A stretch of DNA of 64,000 bases from Eledone cirrhosa. Taxonomy: Eukaryota. The notes beneath the pieces are model-generated. The model was given only the letters and a program-made list of their open reading frames with translations. It was not told the origin of the DNA and did not search any database. The first letter of the stretch is position 1. Each line of letters opens with the position of its first letter. The translations under genes and the position numbers were made by a program. The stretch lies in NCBI GenBank assembly GCA_964016885.1, contig OZ024743.1, positions 339,698,001 to 339,762,000 of the forward strand, written 5' to 3'. Shown one piece after another: positions 28,964-29,157 of this stretch.

Positions 28964-29157
28964 ATAGGAACAAGTAAGACCCTGACGGCTGAGCTCAAGC
29001 CGTTTCGACGGCTAATTCTGTACAGAATTAGCCGTCGAAACGGCTTGAGCTCAGCCGTCGGGGTCTTACTTGTTCCTATTACCCACTCTACTACCCTAAG
29101 TATTGAGTACTTTGGTGCGTTATGGTCCACCTGGTTCCTTACCACATTTCCTTCGTT
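28964..29157 (+). mobile_element. Fold-back hairpin element copy C (GACGGCTAATTC subfamily) in (TA)n
   Basis: 58-bp arms (28964-29021 / 29022-29079, one mismatch) plus a ~78-bp tail. Confidence 0.9.

Follow-up and report, generated by a model that had tools for sequence, protein, structure and literature searches.

The repeat family described here is, with moderate confidence, a non-autonomous, non-coding stub of a Penelope-like element (PLE), whose mirror-image arm is rebuilt at every insertion. The observations on which this reading is based are the layout of the copies in the 64,000-nucleotide stretch of DNA analysed (the window), their two 3' ends, a 5' boundary in a stem-loop, changes shared by both arms, centres which differ from copy to copy, and the junctions. 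The family is short, young and abundant, with two fixed 3' ends, a 5' stem-loop which can be oriented and many asymmetric copies, and it allows self-priming to be set against the joining of two cDNAs by means of junction counts in one assembly.

The reference copy (A) is a 193-base repeat (28964-29156, + strand) composed of a mirror-image hairpin and a one-sided tail, and lies inside TA repeats, the left (TA)n target flank covering 28940-28963 and the right one 29157-29294. Its palindrome (28964-29079) measures 116 bp, with arms of 58 nt, a loop length of zero, the axis at 29021/29022 and one mismatch only (28983/29060). The left arm (28964-29021, - strand) is the inverted unit without the tail and meets (TA)n with its inner 3' end, CCTAT, while the right, tail-proximal arm (29022-29079, +) is followed, on this side only, by the tail of 77 nt (29080-29156, +), which ends in (TA)n. 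No ORF was found in the unit. The axis region (29012-29031, +) corresponds to a natural 7-bp stem-loop, CTAATTT / AGTCCA / GAATTAG, which is the common 5' boundary of non-palindromic copies. Further along the right arm come GAAA (29037-29040), CGGCT (29041-29045), a loop of 7 nt (29046-29052), AGCCG (29053-29057), TC (29058-29059) and GGGGTC (29060-29065), the GTC triplet being 29057-29059; these are the letters of the motif to which an earlier note on this DNA had pointed, and they are as it described. The stretch 29037-29059 (+) resembles the 3' half of a hammerhead ribozyme, with GAAA, a near-palindromic helix III and GTC.

Five full copies (A-E) and two single arms without tail (F and G) were found in the window. 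All five full copies are arranged as (TA)n, inverted arm, arm, 77-nt tail and (TA)n, with the inverted copy head-to-head at the 5' end and (TA)n on both sides, F and G having (TA)n on one side. A, B and C form one subfamily and D, E and F a second, G being more diverged. Copy B (44612-44804, -) keeps the loop in antisense (TGGACT) at its centre, and copy C (34634-34821, +) has a shorter centre in which part of the antisense loop is kept; copy D (1399-1600, -) shows a 12-nt deletion in the left arm and a duplication in the tail, and copy E (5145-5312, +) has a right arm without the GAAA-helix segment between two GTCG repeats. The inner end of F (12080-12141, +) terminates in (TA)n, and the homology of G (21604-21662, +) reaches the same 5' boundary as the non-palindromic copies found in reads. 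As for the surroundings, copy B sits within 44100-48050, about 4 kb of nearly pure A/T degenerate (TA)n where an assembly error is possible, and copy C lies in or beside an EF-hand gene (exons at 31538-31834, +, with a Pfam match, and at about 40140-40420, +), as does a long symmetric inverted repeat without tail (31074-31356), which is more MITE-like than PLE-type. The host is an animal, which by repeats of this kind looks like an octopus.

Over the 53 aligned positions of the A, B and C arms, three sites (four changes) differ among the copies yet agree between both arms, and the changes confined to one arm are three, all of them CpG transitions. Since the copy-specific changes are common to both arms, it is likely, judging from these alignments, that the two arms of a copy derive from one template, used at or close to the time of insertion, and that they decayed independently afterwards. 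To this extent the earlier note was borne out; its explanation starts from a parent in which the hammerhead is intact and whose tail-primed cDNA snaps back on stem II and primes itself, so that the inverted copy replaces the CUGANGA half. Such a course of events would homogenise the arms as observed, and self-priming has already been suggested for PLEs (PMC3846280, in the part available), but we regard it as improbable for this family. With the tail set on the right, the centres of the five full copies all differ. In A, D and E the arms are separated by 0-1 nt, a spacing too small for a fold-back primer, although later loss or assembly polishing could have produced it, and a perfectly symmetric centre such as that of copy A may be a polishing artefact. 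In the case of B and C, snap-back on the natural template predicts a loop in sense (AGTCCA), whereas the loops kept are antisense, for which the joining of two cDNAs is a better fit.

The family was also followed in reads aligned on 172 bases, with 20360 contigs (X1) and 23520 raw reads (X17) from organism A, where it is abundant, and 513 (X4) and 42 (X5) contigs from organism B, none of these figures being copy numbers. Many of the read copies are not palindromic and stop at a common 5' boundary, the natural stem-loop. Loose ends just beyond the axis, before 29023 (88 in X1, 1724 in X17 and 1 in X5), have a consensus ending in TTTAGTC, and those before 29029 (89 in X1, 1742 in X17 and 6 in X4) end in AGTTCGGATC, the form of subfamily 2. 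Among the 24 of 430 loose-end rows listed, the consensus upstream of the boundary is AT-rich and mixed, with an agreement of 0.45-0.60 (0.45-0.51 for subfamily 1); the exception is one X17 row with an agreement of 0.71, which may come from few RAD loci. Neither a CUGANGA core nor GACCCC-CUGANGA occurs in these 24 rows of the 430, the others of which may include a rare parent, and the intact-hammerhead parent expected by the earlier note appeared neither in the 24 rows nor in the window. The 7192 X17 reads ending at 29026 were rejected as a biological end, the AATT at this point in a RAD library being read as a restriction site, and the cut there depletes palindromic copies in X17.

The natural stem-loop, an imperfect one of 7 bp, was seen in contig 17 of X5 (aligned at 29012-29064) and also in a form with 29018 C>T, present in 45 of 148 and 23 of 80 X17 reads (37 starts) and amounting in X1 to 0.8% of depth (29 contigs). 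The axis falls within it, 15 nt before GAAA, which agrees with a fold-back on stem II, but 5 nt separate the natural stem from GAAA, so that it could be at most part of stem II. To place the axis at the position of stem II is itself an interpretation, given that such a hairpin arises from any inversion located 5-25 nt upstream of GAAA. The symmetric variant pair 29015 A>T / 29028 T>A is common genome-wide (38% and 28% of X1 depth, respectively) and is another sign of the arms changing together. Alleles in the orientation of copy B are more frequent in X1 depth than the reverse (29021G 57%, 29024T 42%, 29019A 22%), short contigs being able to align either way, and a B-type centre that is common would also be in keeping with snap-back.

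As regards the other end of the unit, two fixed 3' ends were observed. A total of 3856 X17 raw reads enter (TA)n behind 29079, an exact stop for which self-priming offers no reason, and the second end, at about 29156, is that of the tail, to judge by the loose ends which enter (TA)n behind 29146 and 29153. In addition, 13 of the 15 joints listed (out of 49) pair a left arm ending at 29011-29022 with a right part starting anywhere in 29060-29123, each being supported by 1-4 contigs with 21-28 letters on the short side. Their linkers include GA, GACT, GACTAAA and AACTAAA, which are antisense of the natural 5' end; some joints could have arisen later, when part of the palindrome centre was deleted, but the linkers GACTAAA and AACTAAA cannot be derived by deletion from a B-type centre. 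Both the asymmetric joints and the single arms without tail suggest that a second cDNA was primed independently, and they speak against the snap-back explanation.

In the mechanism that we infer, which involves a PLE partner, an RNA and two target-primed cDNAs, a unit of about 140 nt (arm and tail) would be copied into (TA)n by the reverse transcriptase and endonuclease of the partner, both nicked (TA)n strands priming a cDNA each, one at the tail end and the other at the inner end. The two cDNAs would then meet head-to-head, mostly by annealing through the self-complementary 5' stem-loop, which would yield a palindrome with a near-fixed axis; an early stop of the tail-primed cDNA would give an asymmetric copy, and the retention of one cDNA a single arm. 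Two-cDNA joining explains why the arms are homogenised and the axis is nearly fixed, why loops are kept in antisense, and why some copies are asymmetric and some arms have no tail. Against it, a B-type palindromic master combined with snap-back would also give antisense loops and homogenised arms, and the concerted changes in the arms could result from cruciform repair of the DNA; nevertheless, a B-type master explains neither the stop at 29079 nor the asymmetric copies.

A different question is whether GAAA...GTC is half a hammerhead, and the odds that it is the remnant 3' half of a pseudo-LTR hammerhead are about even. When the arm was shuffled 20000 times with its dinucleotides preserved, in a test made post hoc, 2 shuffles contained the motif with a helix of at least 5 bp and GTC, 12 with at least 4 bp and GTC, and 97 with at least 4 bp and any NUH, and among the shuffles with a 6-bp hairpin 19 of 2269 (<1%) framed it as the 3' half of a hammerhead. 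The GAAA-helix-triplet motif is unlikely to be the product of ordinary chance, with the same post hoc reservation. GAAA, helix III and NUH are present as in a type I hammerhead, copy A has a C before GAAA, as at hammerhead position 11.1, and helix III is near-palindromic, with a self-duplex of -30.7 kcal/mol, all of which, together with the rarity of the motif, also speaks for an intact parent. Hammerhead ancestry is thus favoured because the motif is rare and well placed and helix III is palindromic, as it is in the PLE hammerheads of the accessible text of PMC4209133. It is disfavoured because the segment is close to its own reverse complement and lies in an a / a' / a repeat which fold-backs could make: 29035-29061 aligns to its own reverse complement except for short insertions, and AGCCGTCG occurs twice around ACGGCT.

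What is missing is as the earlier note had said, since CTGANGA (with up to 1 mismatch) is not found upstream of GAAA, in register, in any of the seven copies. The stem II directly before GAAA is closed only by the palindrome itself, and as to stem I, the sole GACCCC is that of the inverted copy, none being directly before a CUGANGA. Given that there is no CUGANGA and no stem I partner, the present unit is predicted, from its letters, to lack self-cleavage in cis, and as a ribozyme it is probably inert. Another sign put forward was GACAG.TAG beside the partial copy G. It is indeed present at 21577, with an equal score in about 1% of shuffles and random windows (p ~0.01), which is a point for snap-back, but it is preceded by AGGTACA and no CUGANGA stands before it. 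The GAAA motif is altered in F (TAAA) and G (GAAG) and deleted from one arm of D and of E, and the fifth helix pair, T29045-A29053, is absent in subfamily 2 and in about 29% of X1 contig depth (29053 A>T).

The alternative, namely that mobilisation was of PLE type and that GAAA...GTC was never a ribozyme and is the by-product of an earlier fold-back, concerns the motif alone and overlaps with the preferred explanation; its chances are considerable, somewhat under even. The likeness of 29035-29061 to its own reverse complement agrees with it, and an alternative hairpin at 29030-29045 (loop CGAA) equals the GAAA-framed one in energy (-7.6 vs -7.7 kcal/mol) and in pairing across 12 arms (94.5% vs 94.7%). 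In these 12 arms covariation exceeded that of shuffles in neither helix, the test being uninformative, and the single unit folded no better than shuffles (z -0.83 to 0.75). With Rfam there was no match at gathering score, none among the best 150 of 206 at E up to 10, and none for two single units; these blanks are weak, the descriptor-positive motif at 56921 having been missed likewise. Short palindromes are, moreover, known at the 5' ends of pLTRs (PMC3846280, available part). The exact framing GAA-A...U-C, found in less than 1% of hairpin-bearing shuffles, argues against a by-product, as do the same-strand hammerheads carried by neighbouring elements, in which the cut would be at a distance of 51 and 83 nt from the end of the arm. 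Three other placements, a type II or permuted hammerhead with CUGANGA in the tail, one on the opposite strand, and one in which CTGTCGA would be the core and GGGG would take the place of GAAA, were rejected because of too many core changes, and Twister, HDV-like and other ribozymes were without Rfam match, a blank that is equally weak. A much bolder reading, and a very unlikely one, is that of a high-copy SINE-like mini-PLE with a hammerhead-bearing terminal repeat as ancestor, in which a stem II remnant now serves as the annealing site for joining two cDNAs head-to-head and GAAA-helix-GUC is cleaved in trans; if true, this would be a natural split hammerhead inside a retroelement, in which a partner RNA bearing CUGANGA cleaves the substrate strand.

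The PLE reading is further supported by three more palindrome-plus-tail elements lying in (TA)n, two of them with whole hammerhead motifs. The element at 43606-44082 (+), with arms of 189 bp and a tail of 87 nt, carries a motif in each arm (intact in the left one and with one core change in the right one), with a long stem II insert and a palindromic helix III; its axis precedes the core by 94 nt, and cleavage is predicted at 51 nt from the arm end. In the element at 42907-43258 (-; arms of 147 bp, tail of about 60 nt) a hammerhead-like motif was found by eye, with U3-A8 instead of C3-G8, a variant described in the accessible text of PMC4209133; here 35 nt lie between the axis and the core downstream of it, and cleavage is predicted at 83 nt from the arm end. 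The third, at 7624-7776 (-), has 31-bp arms, a 23-nt loop and a 68-nt tail, and no hammerhead was seen in it. The earlier note had expected inversion points that are not random with respect to stem II; those of the family are non-random and lie in the natural stem-loop, but in the two neighbouring hammerhead-bearing palindromes the axes are away from stem II.

A descriptor scan of the window gave whole hammerhead motifs at 30520 (+), 22033 (-), 56921 (+) and 43706 (-)/43895 (+), and one weak extra, none of them related to the family. Those at 30520 and 22033 belong to a minimal hammerhead family in which stem II is preceded by an additional A and helix III consists of one pair, with a weak third match at 3719-3765 and 87% identity over 125 nt; that at 56921 is a hammerhead-like motif with all three stems and a palindromic loop 3, and another at 24408 (+) has weak stems I and II. 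The window also contains a GC-rich, frameshifted non-LTR retrotransposon (50100-52800, -) with an RVT_1 match. A SINE-like repeat of about 195 nt is abundant in it on either strand, with copies at 12388-12582, 13837-13898 and many other places.

Directly behind copy E, with (TA)n on both sides, there is the broken 3' end of a PLE-like element (5367-6855, +), which we take to be Neptune-like. It contains an Asn/Gly-rich linker, a Cys motif and a GIY-YIG-like domain, followed by a hammerhead motif in degraded form (6635-6666). A search with the domain gave 458 relatives at E up to 1e-10, the upstream frame matching the same relative, and Atlas gave GIY-YIG as a lead for it (23% of one cluster); Pfam gave no match for the domain, nor for 12 of its 150 listed relatives, and a word-indexed search for relatives of the endonuclease fragment with greater length gave none. 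When the family's tail was compared on the same strand with this element and with other tails, no significant likeness was obtained (p 0.07-0.99), and a tail motif which had seemed common to that element and the other tails was dropped for the same reason.

A non-autonomous DNA element (MITE-like, rolling-circle or hairpin), the whole palindrome of which moves and has its arms homogenised by DNA repair, would be in keeping with the small size, the lack of an ORF, the near-fixed ends and the TA context. It is, however, quite unlikely, since the two ends are unlike, nothing at the other end corresponding to the tail, and TACCC, not TA, follows the right arm; furthermore, many single-arm and asymmetric copies have the natural 5' end, and the same layout is found in unrelated hammerhead-bearing elements. 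As a MITE or TIR transposon with inverted termini and a target site duplication (TSD) the family was rejected, the right terminus being the unique tail and a TSD being unreadable inside (TA)n.

The comparison of the PLE stub with known systems refers to the accessible parts of the papers cited. In the literature searched, most subscription journals lying outside the search, no paper was found that deals with the family or describes a half-hammerhead PLE stub, and exact-pattern scans of metagenome contigs, viral contigs and prokaryote genomes gave no match; the family may already be catalogued in supplements or repeat libraries, for example with PMC13282606. Non-autonomous PLE derivatives have been described (PMC8557442; 10.64898/2026.07.22.740005), and both the layout and the idea of self-priming, which was put forward for palindromic junctions of PLEs, are in print (PMC3846280), so that the family is a further example of a known arrangement. 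The origin of the inverted repeats and tails of PLEs is, according to PMC8557442, an open question.

Among short, non-coding elements with a proposed dependence on PLEs, the family resembles non-LTR retrozymes (PMC7229834; 10.64898/2026.07.22.740005) and MRC1 of Chlamys (PMC8557442). Nevertheless, retrozymes and elements such as MRC1 are head-to-tail tandems, and retrozymes carry complete hammerheads, whereas the family is dispersed, head-to-head and without a complete ribozyme; a classification as non-LTR retrozyme was rejected on account of the dispersed head-to-head copies. With the minimal type I hammerheads of PLE pLTRs (PMC4209133) it has in common GAAA, a palindromic helix III with its loop, the UH triplet, the C at 11.1 and a location on the same strand as the tail; it differs from them in its longer helix III and in that none of the 7 copies has CUGANGA, a closed stem II or the stem I partner. 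For the Anolis Poseidon element PAc, reverse transcription starts in vitro at two sites which bound the tail (PMC11167929). The family is alike in its two fixed 3' ends bounding the tail, the AT-rich target and ATT at the inner boundary, but PAc is autonomous, with an intact hammerhead, and the formation of inverted copies lies outside the tests in the available text of that paper.

The closest likeness in arrangement is to the units of endonuclease-positive PLEs (PMC3846280, PMC8557442), whose insertions into (TA)n are recognised by inverted copies lying head-to-head, with a palindrome at the junction and a tail on one side only. The family agrees with them in the inverted copy, the one-sided tail, the junction palindrome and the (TA)n or AT-rich target. 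In contrast with these units, it is without an ORF, is only about 140 nt long and has a tail of 77 nt, compared with the 30-40 bp in print (PMC8557442), and it possesses a common 5' boundary and an axis which is nearly fixed across two subfamilies.
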